64,000 nucleotides of DNA from a bacterium (GTDB taxonomy: Bacteria > SAR324 > XYD2-FULL-50-16): assembly GCA_032250835.1 (NCBI GenBank), contig JAVVEA010000006.1:86049-150048 (forward strand), given 5' to 3'. A model generated the notes under the pieces. It was not told the DNA's origin. It searched no databases and saw only the letters and a program-made list of their open reading frames with translations. Both the position numbers and the translations under genes were made by a program. Positions 6,505 to 14,102 of the stretch are shown piece by piece (the stretch's first letter is position 1; each line of letters starts with the position of its first letter).

Positions 6505-7281
6505 ATGAAGCTCTCGGCGGCGATCATCACGCTGAACGAGGAGCGCAATCTGGCGGCCTGTCTGGACAGCCTGGACTTTTGTGATGAATGGGTGGTGGTG
6601 GACTCGCTCAGCCAAGACGCCACCTGCGAAATCGCTCGTTCCAAGGGGGCCAAGGTCATCGACCAAGCCTTTTTGGGCCATGTGCGGCAAAAGCAACTGG
6701 CCGTGGATTCCTGTAGCCACGACTGGGTTTTGTGTCTCGACGCCGACGAACGGATCAGCCCCGAATTGCGGGCCAGTATCTTAGCCTTAAAAAATCAAGA
6801 AGAGCCTGAATTGGCAGGTTATCAGGTCAACCGGCTGAGCTGGCATCTGGGCCGCTGGATCCGCCACGGCGGCTGGTACCCGGACCGCAATATTCGGCTC
6901 TTTGACCGCCGGCGCGGCCATTGGGCGGGCTATGACCCCCACGACAAGGTGGAGGTTGAGGGGCCGGTGGGCCTGCTAACCGGCGACCTGCACCATTATG
7001 TGTTCAAAGACTTGGCCCACAACGTGGCGACCAATAATTCTTATTCGGGCATCATGGCCAAAGACTTGGCCCAGGCGGGCAAAGGTCCTAGTTTACTCAA
7101 GCTGCTCTTTAAGCCGCCCTGGAAATTTGTGGAATGTTATGTTCTTAAGGCAGGCTTTTTGGACGGCATGGCGGGCTTCATCATCGCCGTAGGGGCGGCT
7201 TATTCGCTCTTTTTAAAATTCGCTAAGCTTTGGGAACAGCAGACCCTTGATCCGGGGGACAGTGAACAGCCCCGAAAGTAA
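6505..7281 (+). CDS. Glycosyltransferase family 2 (LPS beta-1,4-glucosyltransferase-like)
   Basis: IITLNEERN, VVDSLSQD, LDADE, GGWYPD. Confidence 0.9.
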   Translation: MKLSAAIITLNEERNLAACLDSLDFCDEWVVVDSLSQDATCEIARSKGAKVIDQAFLGHVRQKQLAVDSCSHDWVLCLDADERISPELRASILALKNQEEPELAGYQVNRLSWHLGRWIRHGGWYPDRNIRLFDRRRGHWAGYDPHDKVEVEGPVGLLTGDLHHYVFKDLAHNVATNNSYSGIMAKDLAQAGKGPSLLKLLFKPPWKFVECYVLKAGFLDGMAGFIIAVGAAYSLFLKFAKLWEQQTLDPGDSEQPRK

Positions 7282-8332
7282 AGCCCAGGCGCTCTGCCGC
7301 TGGTTTGACCAAACCCAACGTCCGCTGCCCTGGCGGGCCGAATATGCCCCCTATCAGGTCTGGATTAGCGAGATCATGGCCCAGCAGACCCGCATGGACC
7401 AGCTGATTCCCTATTACTTGCGGTGGATGAAAGCGCTGCCCGACATAGCCGCCCTGGCGGAGGTGCCTGAAGACCAACTGCTTAAGCTTTGGGAGGGTTT
7501 GGGTTACTACAACCGGGCCCGCAACTTAAAGCTAGCCGCCCAAAAGGTGATGGCCCAGGGCGGCAAATTGCCCATGGGCCGCAAGGAGCTTTTGGACCTG
7601 CCGGGCATCGGCCCCTATACCGCCGGAGCGATTCTTTCGATTGCCTTTAACCAGCCCGAACCCTTGATCGACGGGAATATCGAGCGGGTCTTGGCGCGGC
7701 TCTTGGACCTGGATATAAACCCCAAGACCGCCGCCGGCAAGCGCTACTTTGAAGCCGAAGTGGCGGCCCTGATGCGCGGCTTTGAGCCCCGTAAAGTGGC
7801 CCAGGGGTTGATGGAGCTAGGCGCGCTGGTCTGCTCGCCCACTAACCCCAACTGCGGCGAATGCCCCTGGGGCGGTGACTGCTTGGCCCGCCAAAAGGGA
7901 ACCATCGAGGCCCGCCCAGTCCTGCCGCCGCGCCCTGAAGGGATCAAAGAAAAGCGCTTGGTCTTGGTTTTAGAAGAGTCCGGCCAGTTTTACCTGCTGC
8001 CCCAACCCAAGGGAGCCCGCTGGGGCGGTATGGAATTGTTTTTGATGCCCTTGGTTGAACGCTGGCCCCAAGCCGAGGGCCTAACCGCCCACCTCCCCGA
8101 AGGCGTCGCGTTAGCCGGAACGCCCCAATATCTAGGCGAATTCAGGTATACGGTCACCAAATACCGCGTCCAAGCCCAAGCCTGGCGTATCCCCATAGAC
8201 CGCCGCCCCTCTGGTGGCCTCTGGCTGAGTCTAGAAGAACTAGAAGCCCGCGCCCTACCCCGGCCCGGCGTAAAGACCCGGGAGTTGTTGCGGGGTGCGC
8301 TTAAGCCCCGCAATGCTGTTGCTGCGCTATAG
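7262..8332 (+). CDS. mutY: A/G-specific adenine glycosylase MutY
   Basis: LPWR, WISEIMAQQT, WEGLGYYNRARNL, HhH LPGIGPYTA, Fe-S C-x6-C-x2-C-x5-C. Confidence 0.95.
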   Translation: MNSPESKAQALCRWFDQTQRPLPWRAEYAPYQVWISEIMAQQTRMDQLIPYYLRWMKALPDIAALAEVPEDQLLKLWEGLGYYNRARNLKLAAQKVMAQGGKLPMGRKELLDLPGIGPYTAGAILSIAFNQPEPLIDGNIERVLARLLDLDINPKTAAGKRYFEAEVAALMRGFEPRKVAQGLMELGALVCSPTNPNCGECPWGGDCLARQKGTIEARPVLPPRPEGIKEKRLVLVLEESGQFYLLPQPKGARWGGMELFLMPLVERWPQAEGLTAHLPEGVALAGTPQYLGEFRYTVTKYRVQAQAWRIPIDRRPSGGLWLSLEELEARALPRPGVKTRELLRGALKPRNAVAAL

Positions 8333-8541
8333 GGGTATCGAGAGATTGTCGCGCATAACCTGGGCCCATTTCGGAGCGCCGGGAACCTAATTTCTTCACA
8401 ATCATCTTAAAATCACAATTTATTTTGCGATTTTCTACATTGCGTTGCTTTGTCATTAGATTTTGAATTCTCTATTTATTGCGAAATTCATGGTTTCAAG
8501 GGCAGGCGACTCGAATCAAACACTATTTTTATCTCAGCAGC

Positions 8542-8572
8542 TTGACAATAAAATATCCCTGTGAAATAAGAT
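8542..8572 (+). promoter_or_regulatory. Possible sigma70 promoter for the island operon
   Basis: Perfect TTGACA at 8542-8547; best -10 is TAAGAT at 8567-8572 (19-nt spacer, suboptimal). Confidence 0.3.
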
Positions 8573-8641
8573 AACCGCCTGCGGGATGATTCGATTCCCA
8601 TGGGTTTTTATTGTTTCATTTAACTTTTCAAAAGAGGAAAT

Positions 8642-8677
8642 ATGTACCCACCTGTGATTAAGCCTGAGGCTAAATAA
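8642..8677 (+). CDS. Putative 11-aa precursor/leader peptide MYPPVIKPEAK
   Basis: AAGAGGA immediately upstream, ATG at 8642, TAA at 8675-8677, in-frame stop upstream at 8621; followed by a hairpin and modifying enzymes. Confidence 0.5.
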   Translation: MYPPVIKPEAK

Positions 8678-8688
8678 ATAACCAATAG

Positions 8689-8716
8689 CGTTTAGAGGCA
8701 GTTCCGCCTCTAAACG
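8689..8716 (+). terminator. Perfect 11-bp stem-loop (attenuator/stabiliser) between the small ORF and the oxygenase
   Basis: CGTTTAGAGGC-agttcc-GCCTCTAAACG. Confidence 0.7.
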
Positions 8717-8740
8717 TCTTAATACATTAAAATTCGTGAA

Positions 8741-9358
8741 ATGAACAAGTTGTATGCAGATTTGCAGCACAGGTTCGATGCCGCTGGTTTTTTGATATTG
8801 AAGGGTTCCGAGTTTTATTCCGACGCCCAATGGGAAATTATTGACGGCTATTCAAATCAAGTCAGCTACGAATCAGTCCAGAAGGGGCTGCAGAAAGACT
8901 CCGAATACGCGGCACATGTTGGCCGTATTGTCCTTGATGGGCCCACACCATCGGGAGAATACCTTCAGATCAACGAACCCGAAAACCTAGCCGATTGCAG
9001 CACAGAGCTTTTATGGACGATACTCAATCCTCGAGTACTCGCCGTTACCAGCGCCATTGCCTCCATTGACATCCCCAAGGTTCAAAGGTGCCAATACAAC
9101 CTATTGAGATCTGGGGACCATATCGGAAAACATATCGATGCGCTGCACGGTATTCCCTATGACCTTACCTTTGTACTCGGTCTAGAAGGAGACTACCAAG
9201 GTGGGATTTTTCAGCTTTATGGCCAAACCAACAGTGAGGTCTTTTTCCATAAAATTTCAGAAAAAGACCTAATAATTTTTAAAAGCCCTTTGCTGCATTC
9301 TGTTACCAAAGTATCAAGCGGCAAGAGGAAAACTCTTTGCTTATTTTTGAAAAAATAA
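8741..9358 (+). CDS. 2OG-Fe(II) oxygenase (prolyl-hydroxylase-like)
   Basis: HxD (KHIDA), YQGGIF, distal His and Arg (LLHSVTKVSSGKRKTL). Confidence 0.85.
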   Translation: MNKLYADLQHRFDAAGFLILKGSEFYSDAQWEIIDGYSNQVSYESVQKGLQKDSEYAAHVGRIVLDGPTPSGEYLQINEPENLADCSTELLWTILNPRVLAVTSAIASIDIPKVQRCQYNLLRSGDHIGKHIDALHGIPYDLTFVLGLEGDYQGGIFQLYGQTNSEVFFHKISEKDLIIFKSPLLHSVTKVSSGKRKTLCLFLKK

Positions 9359-9374
9359 ACTGTACGAGGAACCC

Positions 9375-10709
9375 TTGGACTTTATAATTTTTGTTCCCTT
9401 CCCTGACTATTGCTTTAGTCAAGACCCCCCTTGTTTAGGCGCCGGAAGTATCTCTGGTTATTTGAGCAGCAAAGGCTATGAAGCTTCCGTGGTGCCGGTG
9501 ACTAGTGCAGACCTCCCCAATATTTCTCAAAATCAATGTGATATTATCGGGATCAGTATTCTTGAGGATTCTTGGGAACTGGCGCAAAATATCGCCGCAA
9601 TTTATCAAGCTCAAGGTAGCAAGGTAATCGCAGGCGGCGTATTCACCTCAGTTTGCCCAGAGGAGGTACTGCAAAGCGGTCTTTTTGATGCAGTCTGTAT
9701 TGGAGATGGGGAATTAATCGCTCAAGTGTTCATTGAGCAAATTATGTCTGGCAGGCACGAGAACCTTAAAGGTTTGGTCTGGAACGATAAATATTTGGTT
9801 TCTGAGGCTCAGGATTTTTCCTACAACATACAAGAGGATCTTTCGTTATTCCAAAGTTCGGATTTTGGCTACAAATCATTTTTACCCATTAGTTCCTATT
9901 CAGATACTTCTCGAGTCATCTTAACGCCCCCTTCAGGCGACGAAACCGGTGCGACCTGCGAATTTATGTTTTCGCGGGGCTGTGGTTATCGTTGTACCTA
10001 TTGTCACAACTCAAATGAGGCGGTTCAAGACGTTCAATGGCTTCGATTTTACGACCTACGTTGCGTTATTGCTGATATTGAAAGAATCCACCAACAACAC
10101 AATTTGAGTAGAATTTGCATCTTAGACGATGATATTATTTCAAATTATCCCTATTTCCGGCAGTTTGTTGAACTCTATTCTAGCCGGATTCATCTCCCCT
10201 ATAGAGCATTTACTCGACCAGAAAAAATCAATGCCAGAACCGTAAAAATGCTCAAGGACTCGGGGTGCTATTTGATTTCCATGGGTCTGGAATCAGCAAA
10301 TCAAATGATCCGGGAGAAGGTGTTAAACCGGAAGATGTCTACCGAGCGCATAGCAAAAGCAATGCGGTTGTGCCGTGAAAATGGAATCCAAACGATCATC
10401 AACGTAATGATCGGCATTCCAGGTGAAACTGAAGAAGAGATTGAAGAGACGATTTCTTTTTTAGAAGAGAATCGACCTGATTTTGTGTTTGCTTCCATAT
10501 TCACTCCCTATAGGGGAACGAAAATCTACAATATTTGCAAAGAAGCGGGCTGGGATTTGCGAGCTTCAAATACCGGAGGAGTGCAGTACGGGAGCTCAAA
10601 AAATCCCTACTTTGTAGGCAAAGAATCTTATTTGCGGGCCTCTCTTCAGCGGTTGCAACAGCTTTCGCAAGTTCAGCCAATGGTAAGTAGCTGCAAAAGC
10701 ATAAAGTAA
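9375..10709 (+). CDS. Cobalamin-binding radical SAM protein (class B-like)
   Basis: N-terminal B12 domain (PPCLG..ISGYL, IAGGVF, CIGDGE); SRGCGYRCTYC CxxxCxxC; GLES, MIGIPGET, TPYRGT; TTG start with GAGGA SD. Confidence 0.9.
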   Translation: MDFIIFVPFPDYCFSQDPPCLGAGSISGYLSSKGYEASVVPVTSADLPNISQNQCDIIGISILEDSWELAQNIAAIYQAQGSKVIAGGVFTSVCPEEVLQSGLFDAVCIGDGELIAQVFIEQIMSGRHENLKGLVWNDKYLVSEAQDFSYNIQEDLSLFQSSDFGYKSFLPISSYSDTSRVILTPPSGDETGATCEFMFSRGCGYRCTYCHNSNEAVQDVQWLRFYDLRCVIADIERIHQQHNLSRICILDDDIISNYPYFRQFVELYSSRIHLPYRAFTRPEKINARTVKMLKDSGCYLISMGLESANQMIREKVLNRKMSTERIAKAMRLCRENGIQTIINVMIGIPGETEEEIEETISFLEENRPDFVFASIFTPYRGTKIYNICKEAGWDLRASNTGGVQYGSSKNPYFVGKESYLRASLQRLQQLSQVQPMVSSCKSIK

Positions 10710-10833
10710 TCAGTTTGTTGGCTCATCTTGTTTGTATTGTGAAAGGAGCACCAAAAGAGCTATTGGCAAATTTGATAATGCGCCCAAAAACCCATATTAT
10801 ACGGAATCAAAACACCTGTCGGAGCGGTTTCCA

Positions 10834-11574
10834 ATGAATACTTTGGAGTATATATCCTTGAATGAAAGTGACACCATTGATGGTTATCAGTTTTACCAGA
10901 ACTCGTTGGCGGCCGCCAATTGGGGGGAGGAGTTTGTGTGGTCGGGCGATGAACAACTGCCCGAGGAGTTGTTGCAATTTAGCATCGAAGTGGCAAGCCA
11001 GTCTTTTTATGCCGAACAGCTAGGAATGCTTGGGGCCATCAGGTTGACCGAGCGCTGTCAGGACGTGGGCATGCGCATGCATTTGGCCAGCGCGATCATG
11101 GACGAAGCCCGCCACACAAAAGTGTTTTTTGACTATCTTAAAAGTAAAAAATCGACGCCCCAGCCCCCCGCAACACACTGGAATGAGATTAATGGGGAAA
11201 TGGGCTCCGGCAAATCTCATTTGTACGGGTTTTATGCTCATACCATGCTTGAAAACCAAGCCCTTGTCTCCTTTGAATTGTTGCAAAACATATTTTTTCC
11301 ATTTGATTTAGGCAGTGTGTACAAAAAGGTGAAAAATGACGAGGCACGGCACGTAAAAATGGGGATCGAGTTTATCCAGAAACTCTCCTTGGAAACTCCA
11401 AAGCCAAGAGAAACCCTGGTACAAATACATGGAGAGGTTATGGAAAATTGCGGAATTAGTGACGAGGCCTGTCGATACTACGCCAAATATTCAGAGCTAA
11501 GTGATGCGCAAATTAAAGAGAAATTCGTGCACCGTCAGTCTTCAATGCTTAAAGCTGTAACCGGTCTCCCCTAA
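10834..11574 (+). CDS. Ferritin-like diiron protein
   Basis: Repeated E...DEARH / E...DEARH carboxylate-His ligand pattern; ATG at 10834 after GGAG. Confidence 0.8.
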   Translation: MNTLEYISLNESDTIDGYQFYQNSLAAANWGEEFVWSGDEQLPEELLQFSIEVASQSFYAEQLGMLGAIRLTERCQDVGMRMHLASAIMDEARHTKVFFDYLKSKKSTPQPPATHWNEINGEMGSGKSHLYGFYAHTMLENQALVSFELLQNIFFPFDLGSVYKKVKNDEARHVKMGIEFIQKLSLETPKPRETLVQIHGEVMENCGISDEACRYYAKYSELSDAQIKEKFVHRQSSMLKAVTGLP

Positions 11575-12045
11575 ATTTCGGTGACAATCGTTGGGAACCG
11601 CATGGTGCTCCATCTGGCTCTCATCGCAAAACCTATCCGATGTGGGGTCCCGAGAAAGGGCAAAATGTAGTTTGCGCTGGGTCCTTAGTTAGGTGTACCC
11701 TGCTGCAAAAATAAAAGTCTGTGCGGTTCTGGAGGACTCGAAGTTATCTGAGTTGCCCGGAATGATTTGGGCGGTTCCTGTGGATCTTAAGGCCCTGAAG
11801 TTAAAGGAGGTTGTGCGGGTGAAGGACGAGTAACCCAGCCTATAGCCGGTCAGGCCGATTTTCTCAAATGGCGCGGACGAACCCGAAGGCGGCATCCAAT
11901 TCGCATTCATCCTCGCGGCCAGCAAAACCGCCCCCACCTTGCAGCCTGAGACCGGCACTTCTCCTGGGCTGGTATTAGTGGGGGAAGTCGAATTAGCGGA
12001 GAGGATGTCCTTTACTGCTTGCGGTTAGGTGTCTAAAAGCAGTCG

Positions 12046-12318
12046 CTACAATTCCTGCCCGGTCACATGCTTGTGCAAAATCATGCTGATGTATGTTTGG
12101 TAGCCGAGGCCTGCGCGAGCGGCCTTGGCCTTGATCGCTTCTAGGTCGTTTGGGGCCAGGCGGAGATTGACTTTGGCGGACTTCTTTAGGGCTTCGGTGG
12201 CTAGCTTCTTCCAAGTGGCCTTTGAAAATTGAGGGTCCGAAACCCATTCTTCGGTTTCAAGGGATTCCATCAGTTCCGCTTCTTCGGCGTCGAAGGGCTT
12301 TTGATTGGTGTCACTCAT
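12046..12318 (-). CDS. CopG/BrnA-like antitoxin
   Basis: VNLRL..NDLEAIKAKAARAGLGYQTYISMILH ribbon-helix-helix; 4-nt overlap with the toxin gene. Confidence 0.8.
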   Translation of the reverse strand: MSDTNQKPFDAEEAELMESLETEEWVSDPQFSKATWKKLATEALKKSAKVNLRLAPNDLEAIKAKAARAGLGYQTYISMILHKHVTGQEL

Positions 12319-12581
12319 TCTTTAAACCTCTGGTTGTACTTTCGGCTTTTAAAGGCGGTCTTCAGGAAAATCCCCTGGCCGTCTTTTACGTAGGGCACGG
12401 CCCACACGTAGTTTTGACACCAAACCAGCAGAATACGCTGATGGTCCTTGGTAGGATGTTTGATGTCATCTATGGCCGCGTCCAATTGGACTGCTTGGGC
12501 TAATTCCTCAAAGGAAATCCCTCGTTCGGCGATCAACCACTCGTTTTTGTCTTCAGCCCATCGTAGGCAATCGTAGTCCAT
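12315..12581 (-). CDS. BrnT-like (DUF497-type) toxin
   Basis: W.EDKNEWLIAERGISFEE...YVWAVPYV...IFLKTAFKSRK. Confidence 0.8.
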   Translation of the reverse strand: MDYDCLRWAEDKNEWLIAERGISFEELAQAVQLDAAIDDIKHPTKDHQRILLVWCQNYVWAVPYVKDGQGIFLKTAFKSRKYNQRFKE

Positions 12582-12863
12582 GCCTAAATCGTAGGACAAA
12601 AGATAGACATTATCAAGTGGAAACCTAGAGCCCATGTCAGGCGAGTGTCCCAAAGTCTACTCGCTCAATTCGTTTGCCCCTTGCCCAGAGTTCCCGCCCA
12701 AAAGCCGCAGCCTTGCTCGATTTCTTCAGGGTTGCGCCACCCGCAACCTGACCCCCTTACCCGAGCCCCCACCAAACCCCAAAAAGGGTTGTCAAGCCCG
12801 GCGGGTTCTGGTATCAAGGTGGATACTCAAGCCAACAATAACCCTCCTCACCTCTTAGGCCCC

Positions 12864-14102
12864 ATGAAGTTACAGGTCGTCAAGGGAATGCGCGATTTGA
12901 GCGGTCCCGAGGCACGCGCTTTCAGTTATTTGGAAGCCGAAGCCCGGCGTATCTTTGGGCTTTATGGCTTTGAAGAGCTGCGTACGCCGCTGATGGAGTT
13001 CGTGGAACTCTTCACCAAGGGCATCGGCGAAGAGACGGATATTGTGGGCAAGGAAATGTATCTGCTCGAAGACCGCAAGGGGCAGAAGCTGGCCCTGCGG
13101 CCCGAAGGCACCGCTTCGGTGGTGCGGCATGTGGCGGTTTCGCAGGTGCTCAAACAAAAGAAGCAGGCCAAGTATTTTTACATGGGCCCCATGTTCCGTT
13201 ACGAACGCCCCCAAAAGGGCCGCTTCCGCCAGTTCCACCAGATTGGGGTGGAATCCTTCGGCGTTGAAGGGCCCGATGCGGACCTGGAAATGTTCTTGAT
13301 GCTGCGCCAATACTTTGCGGCCATCGAACTGACCGACGTGAGCTTCCAGATCAACAGCATCGGCTGCCAAGACCCTGGCTGCCGCCCGACCTTCAAACAG
13401 AAGCTGGTTGAGTACCTAAGCGCGCATAAAGAAGCGCTTTGCGAGGACTGCAACCGGCGCATGGAAACCAATCCCTTACGGGTCTTAGACTGCAAGGTGC
13501 CCGGCTGCATAGAAGTGACCCAGTCGGCCCCCAAGGCTATCGACTGGCTATGCGAGCCCTGTGACAGCCACTTTAAGGAATTGACGGCGCTGCTCGAAGA
13601 CAACGGCATCCAATTTGAATTAAACCACCGGCTGGTTCGGGGTTTGGATTATTATTCGCGCACCGTTTTTGAGGTCTATTCGGCCAACCTGGGGGCCCAA
13701 AGTGCGGCCGGAGGTGGCGGGCGTTTTGATGGGCTCTTTGAGCAATATGGTCAAGAATCGGTGCCCAGTATCGGTTTTGCGCTGGGCCTCGACCGCTTGG
13801 CGCTGCTCGCACCCGAGCCGCCCGCCGGGGAGGCACCGGTTTTTGTGATTGGCTTTGAGCGGGCCGCTACGGTAAAATTAGTGGCCGCCGTAAGAAATGC
13901 CGGTAAGGGCTGTTTTTATGATCCGGGATTTGCTAGCATGAAAAGTCAGTTCAAGCAGGCCGACAAGGCAGGGGCCCGGTTTGTGATGATTTTAGGCGAA
14001 GAAGAGGTTAAGTCGGGCCAAGTGGCCTTAAAGGATTTGTCTACCGGTGAACAGGATCGGGTGGACATAGCAACGGCCCTGGCAAGGGTAACGGAGGCTT
14101 AA
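12864..14102 (+). CDS. hisS: Histidyl-tRNA synthetase
   Basis: KGMRD, LRPEGTA, FRYERPQKGRFRQFHQ, LVRGLDYY, GGGGRFDGL. Confidence 0.97.
   Translation: MKLQVVKGMRDLSGPEARAFSYLEAEARRIFGLYGFEELRTPLMEFVELFTKGIGEETDIVGKEMYLLEDRKGQKLALRPEGTASVVRHVAVSQVLKQKKQAKYFYMGPMFRYERPQKGRFRQFHQIGVESFGVEGPDADLEMFLMLRQYFAAIELTDVSFQINSIGCQDPGCRPTFKQKLVEYLSAHKEALCEDCNRRMETNPLRVLDCKVPGCIEVTQSAPKAIDWLCEPCDSHFKELTALLEDNGIQFELNHRLVRGLDYYSRTVFEVYSANLGAQSAAGGGGRFDGLFEQYGQESVPSIGFALGLDRLALLAPEPPAGEAPVFVIGFERAATVKLVAAVRNAGKGCFYDPGFASMKSQFKQADKAGARFVMILGEEEVKSGQVALKDLSTGEQDRVDIATALARVTEA

Follow-up and report, generated by a model that had tools for sequence, protein, structure and literature searches.

An AT-rich island beside mutY in a SAR324 bacterium: a candidate minimal peptide-tailoring cassette with a ferritin-like diiron enzyme

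The clavusporin (mpc) cluster produces a RiPP, a peptide that is made on the ribosome and modified after translation. The cluster comprises the precursor MpcA, the B12 radical S-adenosylmethionine (SAM) beta-C-methyltransferase MpcB, MpcC (DUF5825), a major facilitator superfamily (MFS) transporter and an S9 peptidase, and the MpcB/MpcC pair beta-methylates Pro, Val, Ile and Thr of the ribosomal precursor (bioRxiv 10.1101/2024.01.23.576971). Here we describe a locus of the SAR324 genome GCA_032250835.1 that recalls this arrangement in part. Within a 64,000-nucleotide (nt) stretch of contig JAVVEA010000006.1 (positions 86,049 to 150,048; hereafter the window), three co-oriented plus-strand genes, A, B and C, lie inside an AT-rich island between mutY and a BrnTA pair followed by hisS, and a tiny open reading frame (ORF) with a hairpin precedes them. 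By analogy, we tentatively read the island as a horizontally acquired, self-contained, minimal peptide-tailoring cassette of the RiPP type, an assignment that ranks first among the explanations considered, at slightly less than even confidence. The analogy supports a RiPP because relatives of C sit beside short ORFs with hairpins and, at some loci, beside RiPP radical SAM maturases of an established type.

Like the clavusporin cluster, the island places a short candidate peptide rich in Pro, Val, Ile and Lys upstream of a radical SAM enzyme with a B12 domain. It differs in carrying no DUF5825, MFS or S9 peptidase gene, and it is not a member of the clavusporin/mpc type. Very small precursors are described elsewhere. 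The biarylitide precursor is called "the smallest reported precursor peptide" (PMC12951456), and pantocin A synthesis involves the 2-oxoglutarate (2OG) oxidase PaaB (PMC13684122). Both systems resemble the island, with its candidate precursor, in their very short or tiny-core ribosomal peptides, their one to three enzymes and their compact mobile clusters. Microcin C is a further minimal-precursor RiPP and is likewise compact. The enzymes differ, namely a P450 for biarylitides, PaaA for pantocin A and MccB for microcin C, and none of these pathways is known to use a ferritin-like diiron protein or a B12 radical SAM enzyme; the pantocin A precursor, moreover, has 30 amino acids (aa), with leader and follower.

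Iron-dependent peptide tailoring offers another comparison. If C acts on a peptide, it would share with MNIO (DUF692) and with the heme-oxygenase-like diiron enzymes of RiPP pathways the use of non-heme multi-iron centres for O2-dependent tailoring. Some of those enzymes co-occur with the pair of B12 radical SAM enzyme and DUF5825 protein, according to one study (PMC12257519). In contrast to the MNIO TIM barrel and the heme-oxygenase-like fold, C is a ferritin-like bundle, and no sequence or fold match to either was seen in Pfam or Foldseek.

Gene C and the loci of its diiron family

Gene C (10834 to 11574, plus strand) is predicted to encode a ferritin-like diiron-carboxylate protein of 246 aa from a rare, unnamed family. 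No Pfam family claims it, and its scores on AurF (PF11583; 12.5 bits against a cut-off of 29.6) and on the NCBIfam model of R2lox (NF006200; 21.4 against 194) are sub-threshold. The six diiron ligands, E61, E91, H94, E140, E170 and H173, are invariant in a 45-sequence alignment, as are G64, A143, D169 and V174; 12 of these 45 members touch AurF, and 12 touch DUF455, at E<=0.01. An AlphaFold2 model (pLDDT 92.5, pTM 0.90) was compared by Foldseek with structures in the Protein Data Bank (PDB). Its best folds were R2lox (TM 0.71-0.78, probability 1.00), Chlamydia R2, the diiron oxygenase PaaA and aldehyde-deformylating oxygenase (ADO). As modelled, C is a four-helix bundle with E, ExxH, E, ExxH metal ligands of the ferritin-like diiron type. 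It shares bundle and ligands with R2lox, AurF/CmlI, PaaA, ADO and the R2 subunit of ribonucleotide reductase, yet it is shorter, only 13-16% identical in sequence, and belongs to a family that keeps company with short ORFs and RiPP radical SAM enzymes, as none of those enzymes does.

The same folds suit another explanation, in which the cassette tailors a host small molecule or lipid (a lipid, a hopanoid-like compound, a quinone or a tetrapyrrole) and the tiny ORF and hairpin stand there by chance or as a regulatory leader. R2lox binds a fatty-acid ligand, and R2lox, PaaA and ADO are the best folds for C. We consider this explanation possible, if rather unlikely, and return to it where the neighbours of C and the matches of B bear on it.

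The family is sparsely distributed. An exhaustive HMMER search over 1.84 billion representatives returned 128 clusters at E<=1e-3; a threshold of 1e-10 left 50 of them and one of 1e-30 left 2, counting C itself. About 55 of the 128 share a length of about 250 aa. The closest relative, P0002 (BAY73528.1, locus NIES23_63800), is 41% identical and annotated as a hypothetical protein on a plasmid of Trichormus variabilis NIES-23; P0003 (WP_125734605.1), from Amycolatopsis sp. WAC 04197, comes next, and P0004-P0013 are from metagenome contigs. A word-based protein search with C returned only the query itself, and scans of genome contigs with P0002, P0003 or an alignment of window C and P0002 found nothing. 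Likewise, tblastn with window C gave no match in L046-L071, a set of 26 weak metagenome matches (24-28% identity over part of the query). Sampling found the family in 1 of 401 Bacillota genomes, which was the centre genome, and in none of 401 from Bacteroidota, and in the 88 genomes of the window's own phylum only longer, distant ferritin-like proteins matched. Within family f7 of that phylum, such proteins (L014-L039; 366-451 aa) reach up to 105 bits on the C-family profile and occur in 10 of 19 genomes, often in two copies. A quick maximum-likelihood tree groups window C with P0002, P0003 and P0004 (SH-aLRT 96), in the half that also holds the enterobacterial clade (SH-aLRT 88-92), while the mpc-like loci fall in the other half.

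Seven loci of the C family were readable, spanning three lineages: L042-L045 and three enterobacterial plasmids (L040, L041 and L092). A short ORF of 8-33 aa with a Shine-Dalgarno site, together with a hairpin, is present in all seven, and the window repeats this arrangement, with a Shine-Dalgarno site and tiny ORF first, then a strong hairpin and the enzymes. A B12 radical SAM enzyme of the TIGR03975 type accompanies a DUF5825 protein in four of the seven, and in two both a B12 radical SAM enzyme and a PF13640 oxygenase stand beside the C relative. The three enzyme classes therefore do co-occur at the family level, a point on which an earlier note on this DNA had let its proposal of an undescribed peptide-modification pathway depend. 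That proposal gains from the short ORFs with hairpins (7/7) and from the B12 radical SAM enzymes (4/7). It loses through the lack of an orthologous locus and through a gene B that is not of the clavusporin type. Chemistry on small molecules alone would hardly explain the link of C to coding short ORFs in 7/7 loci and to established peptide methyltransferases in 4/7.

Loci L042 (Alicyclobacillus shizuokensis), L043 (A. ferrooxydans) and the metagenome contigs L044 and L045 share one gene order: ferritin-like gene, short ORF, hairpin, B12 radical SAM gene, DUF5825 gene and MFS transporter. The two Alicyclobacillus loci carry a short-chain dehydrogenase/reductase gene between DUF5825 and MFS. A PF13640 oxygenase is found in L044 and L045, a methyltransferase in L044 and an S9 prolyl oligopeptidase in L043. 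With TIGR03975, DUF5825 and MFS, and the S9 peptidase of L043, these loci represent exactly the clavusporin cluster type. Their radical SAM proteins measure 624-640 aa, and the two that were scored on TIGR03975, from L042 and L044, reach 588-596 bits where the cut-off is 282. The short ORFs encode 21-33 aa behind strong Shine-Dalgarno sites (MKKVQIPRKVKQGTCHYMIGS, MKKVKIPKRVKPGTCHYMITQS, MKTRKISHTTKVCTQYIQPPENNISRAQRSKR and MKTRKLQHSTKVCTKYLQPQNLVRPKSARSKSK) and are followed by hairpins of 9-12 bp. Over whole pairs, start and stop counted, they differ by 7 and 11 synonymous against 8 and 16 non-synonymous codons; in our own reading of the codon list, differences within the first 19 codons are mostly synonymous or conservative. 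Judged by these codon patterns, the short ORFs of L042-L045 evolve as coding sequence. The four loci (L042:5030-10577; L043:9989-17387; L044:4956-11364; L045:9986-17930) are also clavusporin-like clusters outside Actinobacteria with an extra ferritin-like diiron gene. Their precursors are Lys-rich with one Cys and one Tyr each, unlike the hydrophobic Val/Ile/Pro cores of mpc clusters. The word "ferritin" has 0 occurrences in the clavusporin preprint (bioRxiv 10.1101/2024.01.23.576971), so the diiron partner lies outside the described clavusporin system.

The enterobacterial loci, on plasmids of Xenorhabdus sp. TH1, Pantoea ananatis TZ39 and P. agglomerans FC61912-B, encode an MFS protein, the ferritin-like protein and, overlapping, a hypothetical protein of 200 aa. 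On the Pantoea plasmids a nucleoside-phosphorylase-like gene and a Gfo/Idh/MocA oxidoreductase gene follow, a sterol-desaturase-family gene is present in 3/3 loci, and acyl carrier protein (ACP) and condensation-domain genes lie nearby in Xenorhabdus. Such neighbours favour a small-molecule or lipid substrate. About 60-75 nt upstream of the MFS gene, within poorly conserved DNA, an unannotated 8-codon ORF with a Shine-Dalgarno site encodes MDYQPLAS or MDYQPLAV (L040:7676-7702; L041:7686-7712; L092:4685-4711). Over the 8 codons, the Xenorhabdus copy is separated from those of Pantoea by 3 synonymous changes and 1 replacement, and the hairpin 3' of the ORF stays paired through one compensatory change. 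This locus is a candidate ultrashort RiPP cluster. Identity with the described Pantoea antibiotic cluster PNP-2 was rejected, as the gene list differs. For the 200-aa protein (L040:9698-10300; L041:9700-10302), neither BLASTP nor hhalign, Pfam or a profile search of the PDB supported a 2OG oxygenase like A; a spacing of the HxD...H...R kind, as in small 2OG oxygenases, is visible by eye and serves as a lead only.

The tiny reading frame and its hairpin

The tiny ORF of the window (8642 to 8677, plus strand) is predicted from the sequence to encode, in 11 codons, the candidate leaderless precursor MYPPVIKPEAK. It sits within AT-rich DNA behind the Shine-Dalgarno motif AGAGGA at 8633-8638. Starting 11 nt past its stop, a 12-bp hairpin (8688 to 8717, plus strand; -19.8 kcal/mol, z = -5.0 relative to shuffled versions of the 63-nt gap) ends 24 nt before gene A. 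The hairpin is single-copy in the genome, and a site scan lists it also as a minus-strand site, 8716-8689. In the peptide-tailoring cassette that we propose, the 11-codon ORF would supply the leaderless substrate, and the hairpin behind it would set how much peptide message is present relative to that for the enzymes.

The window peptide (M-Y-P-P) and the enterobacterial peptide (M-D-Y-Q-P) have in common an N-terminal Tyr with a Pro within one residue. This motif, picked after the peptides had been seen, occurs in 1.4% of 346 random window ORFs of 8-14 aa. By inspection, each of the eight peptides contains exactly one Tyr.

A short ORF and a hairpin upstream of genes can also be the layout of a leader-peptide attenuator, which counts against a precursor. 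Ribosome stalling on Pro-Pro would then control the downstream genes, with the substrate of the enzymes encoded or made elsewhere. PP motifs stall ribosomes, and the tiny peptide contains one. Upstream of it lies a second, terminator-like hairpin (8577-8605) with a U-run (8606-8617; together 8577 to 8617, plus strand; z = -2.77 in an RNA fold of 8560-8760), which could end mutY transcription or act as a leader element. In addition, the enterobacterial tiny ORF and hairpin directly precede an MFS gene, a classic spot for the leaders of efflux genes. Opposed to this, the 12-bp hairpin has no U-run and, ending 24 nt upstream of A, does not cover the start region of A, and Rfam gave no match for the hairpin region, neither a leader nor a riboswitch. 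The short ORFs of L042-L045, furthermore, stand directly before an MpcB-type peptide methyltransferase, which is the precursor position in the clavusporin preprint (bioRxiv 10.1101/2024.01.23.576971). On balance, we judge attenuation to be improbable. At the left end of this region, a TTGACA hexamer occupies 8542, and a promoter scan reported no promoter there.

Enzymes A and B and the question of the substrate

Gene A (8741 to 9358, plus strand; 205 aa) scores 31.9 bits on PF13640 against a cut-off of 27. Residues H131-x-D133, H186 and R196 align to the iron triad and the 2OG-binding Arg of the solved 2OG oxygenases 6n1f and 3dkq. With a score above threshold and an HxD...H triad with Arg, A is, on sequence criteria, a PF13640 2OG-Fe(II) oxygenase. 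Its look-alikes in the Atlas are PF13640 clusters from Pseudomonadota and phages, and a word-indexed search of 5.8 billion proteins returned A alone (1 of 123 candidates). A, which resembles prolyl and PKHD-type hydroxylases, would be expected to hydroxylate a side chain; judged by family membership, Pro is the likeliest one.

Among small PF13640 enzymes are hydroxylases that act on Pro in proteins. This background, the phage auxiliary 2OG oxygenases among the look-alikes of A, and PADLOC matches restricted to generic 2OG and radical SAM models would fit a scenario in which the target of the enzymes is a protein or nucleic acid of the host (a translation factor, a ribosomal protein or a tRNA) or in which the island is an inert remnant of transfer. 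A remnant sits poorly with three intact ORFs and complete catalytic motifs, by which A, B and C all look active. Against a host target, no defence, tRNA-modification or ribosome-modification family scored above threshold for the island proteins in Pfam, NCBIfam, PADLOC and PHROGs (the last two gave generic matches only), and the context of the C family points to small peptides. We therefore regard this scenario as very improbable.

Gene B (9375 to 10709, plus strand; 444 aa) starts with TTG behind GAGGAA, 16 nt after the stop of A. It scores 51.2 bits on PF02310 (cut-off 32.1) and 78.3 on PF04055 (29.5), and the motif C203-x3-C207-x2-C210 (CX3CX2C) is read in its sequence. By these features, an N-terminal B12-binding domain and a core with CX3CX2C, B fits class B radical SAM enzymes. 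A word-indexed search of the same 5.8 billion proteins gave 122 proteins, the best non-self match at 30% identity; a scan of genome contigs found only relatives at 22-26%, and tblastn of A and B against plasmids yielded only 23-30% matches with no common context. In the proposed cassette, B would abstract a hydrogen from an unactivated carbon and, if cobalamin is bound, would probably methylate it, as its family suggests. Methylation is not assured, because the nearest solved chain belongs to a dehydratase (AprD4, discussed below). C, in turn, would oxidise the peptide via its diiron-oxygen centre, the single Tyr being our guess at its target.

The matches of B also speak for a small-molecule or lipid substrate. 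Its best NCBIfam matches are a ladderane-type lipid radical SAM model (TIGR04072), the phosphinate enzyme PhpK, the hopanoid enzyme HpnJ and BchE-type enzymes, and AprD4 stands among its matches to solved structures. Radical SAM chemistry is common in the host genome as well, with 12 matches to B (B included). Seven of these are clustered on contig C22, at about 8-65 kb. The NCBIfam matches of B, TIGR03975 included, are all far under their cut-offs and name no substrate. Nor does the island hold a scaffold-forming, carrier or activating gene, and the ORF list shows no fourth enzyme gene beside A, B and C. A three-enzyme island without a scaffold synthase needs a substrate that it encodes itself or a universal molecule of the host.

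The enzyme classes named in the earlier note were correct, as borne out by PF13640 for A, PF02310 and PF04055 for B, and ligands and fold for C. Its caveat that peptidase, transporter and RiPP recognition element (RRE) are missing from the island also held up in Pfam and NCBIfam scans. This absence would suit a host small molecule as substrate. RRE, protease and exporter are, at the same time, not required for leaderless minimal precursors.

Several further observations weigh against the peptide-tailoring cassette. When A, B and C were scanned with Pfam and NCBIfam models, no RRE, protease, exporter or DUF5825-like partner emerged in the island, so that B stands without the partner of MpcB. 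B is not of the MpcB type either: it has CX3CX2C instead of CX7CX2C, 444 aa instead of about 610-640, and 56.4 bits on TIGR03975, the model of RiPP methyltransferases, where 281.85 is the cut-off, and it is 23% identical to the radical SAM enzyme of L044. The nearest solved chain to B, AprD4 (6fd2, E 1.8e-14), is a diol dehydratase acting on a small molecule. BLASTP detected no similarity between A and the PF13640 oxygenase of L044, none of the seven loci carries an orthologue of A or B, and these loci leave out the closest relatives of C, P0002, P0003 and P0004. Nor was the gene set of the window found at any other locus, which leaves the 11-aa ORF without a counterpart by which to judge its conservation.

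The precursor itself invites similar caution. An 11-codon ORF with a Shine-Dalgarno site in a 400-nt AT-rich spacer is not improbable on its own; by rough estimate, chance alone would place about 0.25-0.5 short ORFs so equipped in a spacer of this kind. A rival small ORF (10763 to 10837, plus strand; start TTG at 10763 or ATG at 10778) ends in ...RPKTHIIRNQNTCRSGFQ, its TGA stop overlapping the ATG of gene C. Its Shine-Dalgarno spacing is poor, it has no hairpin after it, and it resembles the precursors of the relatives no more than random ORFs do. It would be the less likely substrate. When the small ORFs of the window were compared with the precursors of the relatives, 7-38% of random small ORFs scored equally high. 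True precursor pairs score below the random mean, and the comparison is for this reason without power.

Insertion at the mutY-hisS junction and implications

The island (about 8390 to 11600, no strand assigned) is delimited by a shift in GC content and by the adjacency of mutY and hisS in relatives. GC is 0.41-0.48 in 500-nt windows across 8250-11749, against 0.54-0.62 on both flanks. These values, the ORFs and the fold confirm what the earlier note had seen, namely an AT-rich island between mutY and the toxin-antitoxin/hisS region with three co-oriented enzymes behind a small ORF and a hairpin. The left flank is mutY (7247-8332), and on the right a minus-strand BrnA/BrnT-like pair (12046-12653) precedes hisS and hemA. 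The mutY-hisS junction was compared in four related genomes of the same family (G003, G006, G007 and G010). In two of the four, G003 and G007, which represent two related genera, hisS-hemA follows within about 220-330 nt after mutY; the island is an insertion, given that mutY abuts hisS in these genera. G010 has no hisS within 5.7 kb of mutY. In G006, from a related genus, the junction holds another insert of 4 kb (L090:2463-6464) with a TetR regulator, an alpha/beta hydrolase and two further ORFs of unknown function, and its GC falls as low as 0.34. Insertions seem to recur at this junction.

The island is of foreign origin and was acquired horizontally. No orthologue of A, B or C was found in 40 relatives. 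Across these and the genome of the window, 41 in all, A had a match in its own genome alone; the best foreign match of B is 29% identical, and C matches at 22-29% identity in three other genomes, in frames of 368-451 aa. Neither flanking direct repeats nor a tRNA were found at the island. The enzyme trio and the composition shift together are far beyond chance.

The BrnA/BrnT-like pair probably belongs to the same insertion or to a second one, because it is missing at the mutY-hisS junction of G003 and G007. Its BrnA/CopG-type antitoxin scores 36.6 bits, and its BrnT-like toxin is weak, at 22.3 bits and under the cut-off. The hisS ORF as listed (12645-14102) has a GTG start overlapping the BrnT-like gene, which lengthens the protein by about 70 residues rich in Pro and Gln; translation probably begins instead near 12861, with the Met of MKLQVVKG....

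A literature search, with subscription journals and supplements outside its reach, found no paper joining ferritin-like proteins, RiPPs, radical SAM and cobalamin, and none containing any of the three tiny peptides. By title and abstract, the papers that it found on diiron enzymes and RiPPs concerned mostly MNIO (DUF692) and heme-oxygenase-like enzymes and named no ferritin-like RiPP tailoring enzyme. The diiron family of C looks like an undescribed tailoring class. More speculatively, and with considerable doubt on our part, this rare family may mark ribosomal peptides of one class across phyla. Their ultrashort precursors (8-33 aa) would each contain a single Tyr, which the diiron enzyme would oxidise or cross-link. 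Its partners would vary between MpcB/DUF5825 methyltransferases, PF13640 hydroxylases and membrane desaturase-like enzymes, and the window would hold the barest version, consisting solely of three tailoring enzymes and a leaderless precursor of 11 aa.

The C family offers tractable test systems in cultured bacteria, namely Alicyclobacillus and the plasmids of Pantoea and Xenorhabdus. If the peptide-tailoring reading is true, ferritin-like (R2-type) diiron enzymes would constitute a new class of RiPP tailoring catalysts beside the TIM-barrel MNIO and the heme-oxygenase-like iron enzymes. Precursors of 8-11 aa would then join those of biarylitides and microcin C among the smallest known genes. 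Genome-mining tools keyed to RREs and to precursors of at least 20 aa would probably overlook such clusters.

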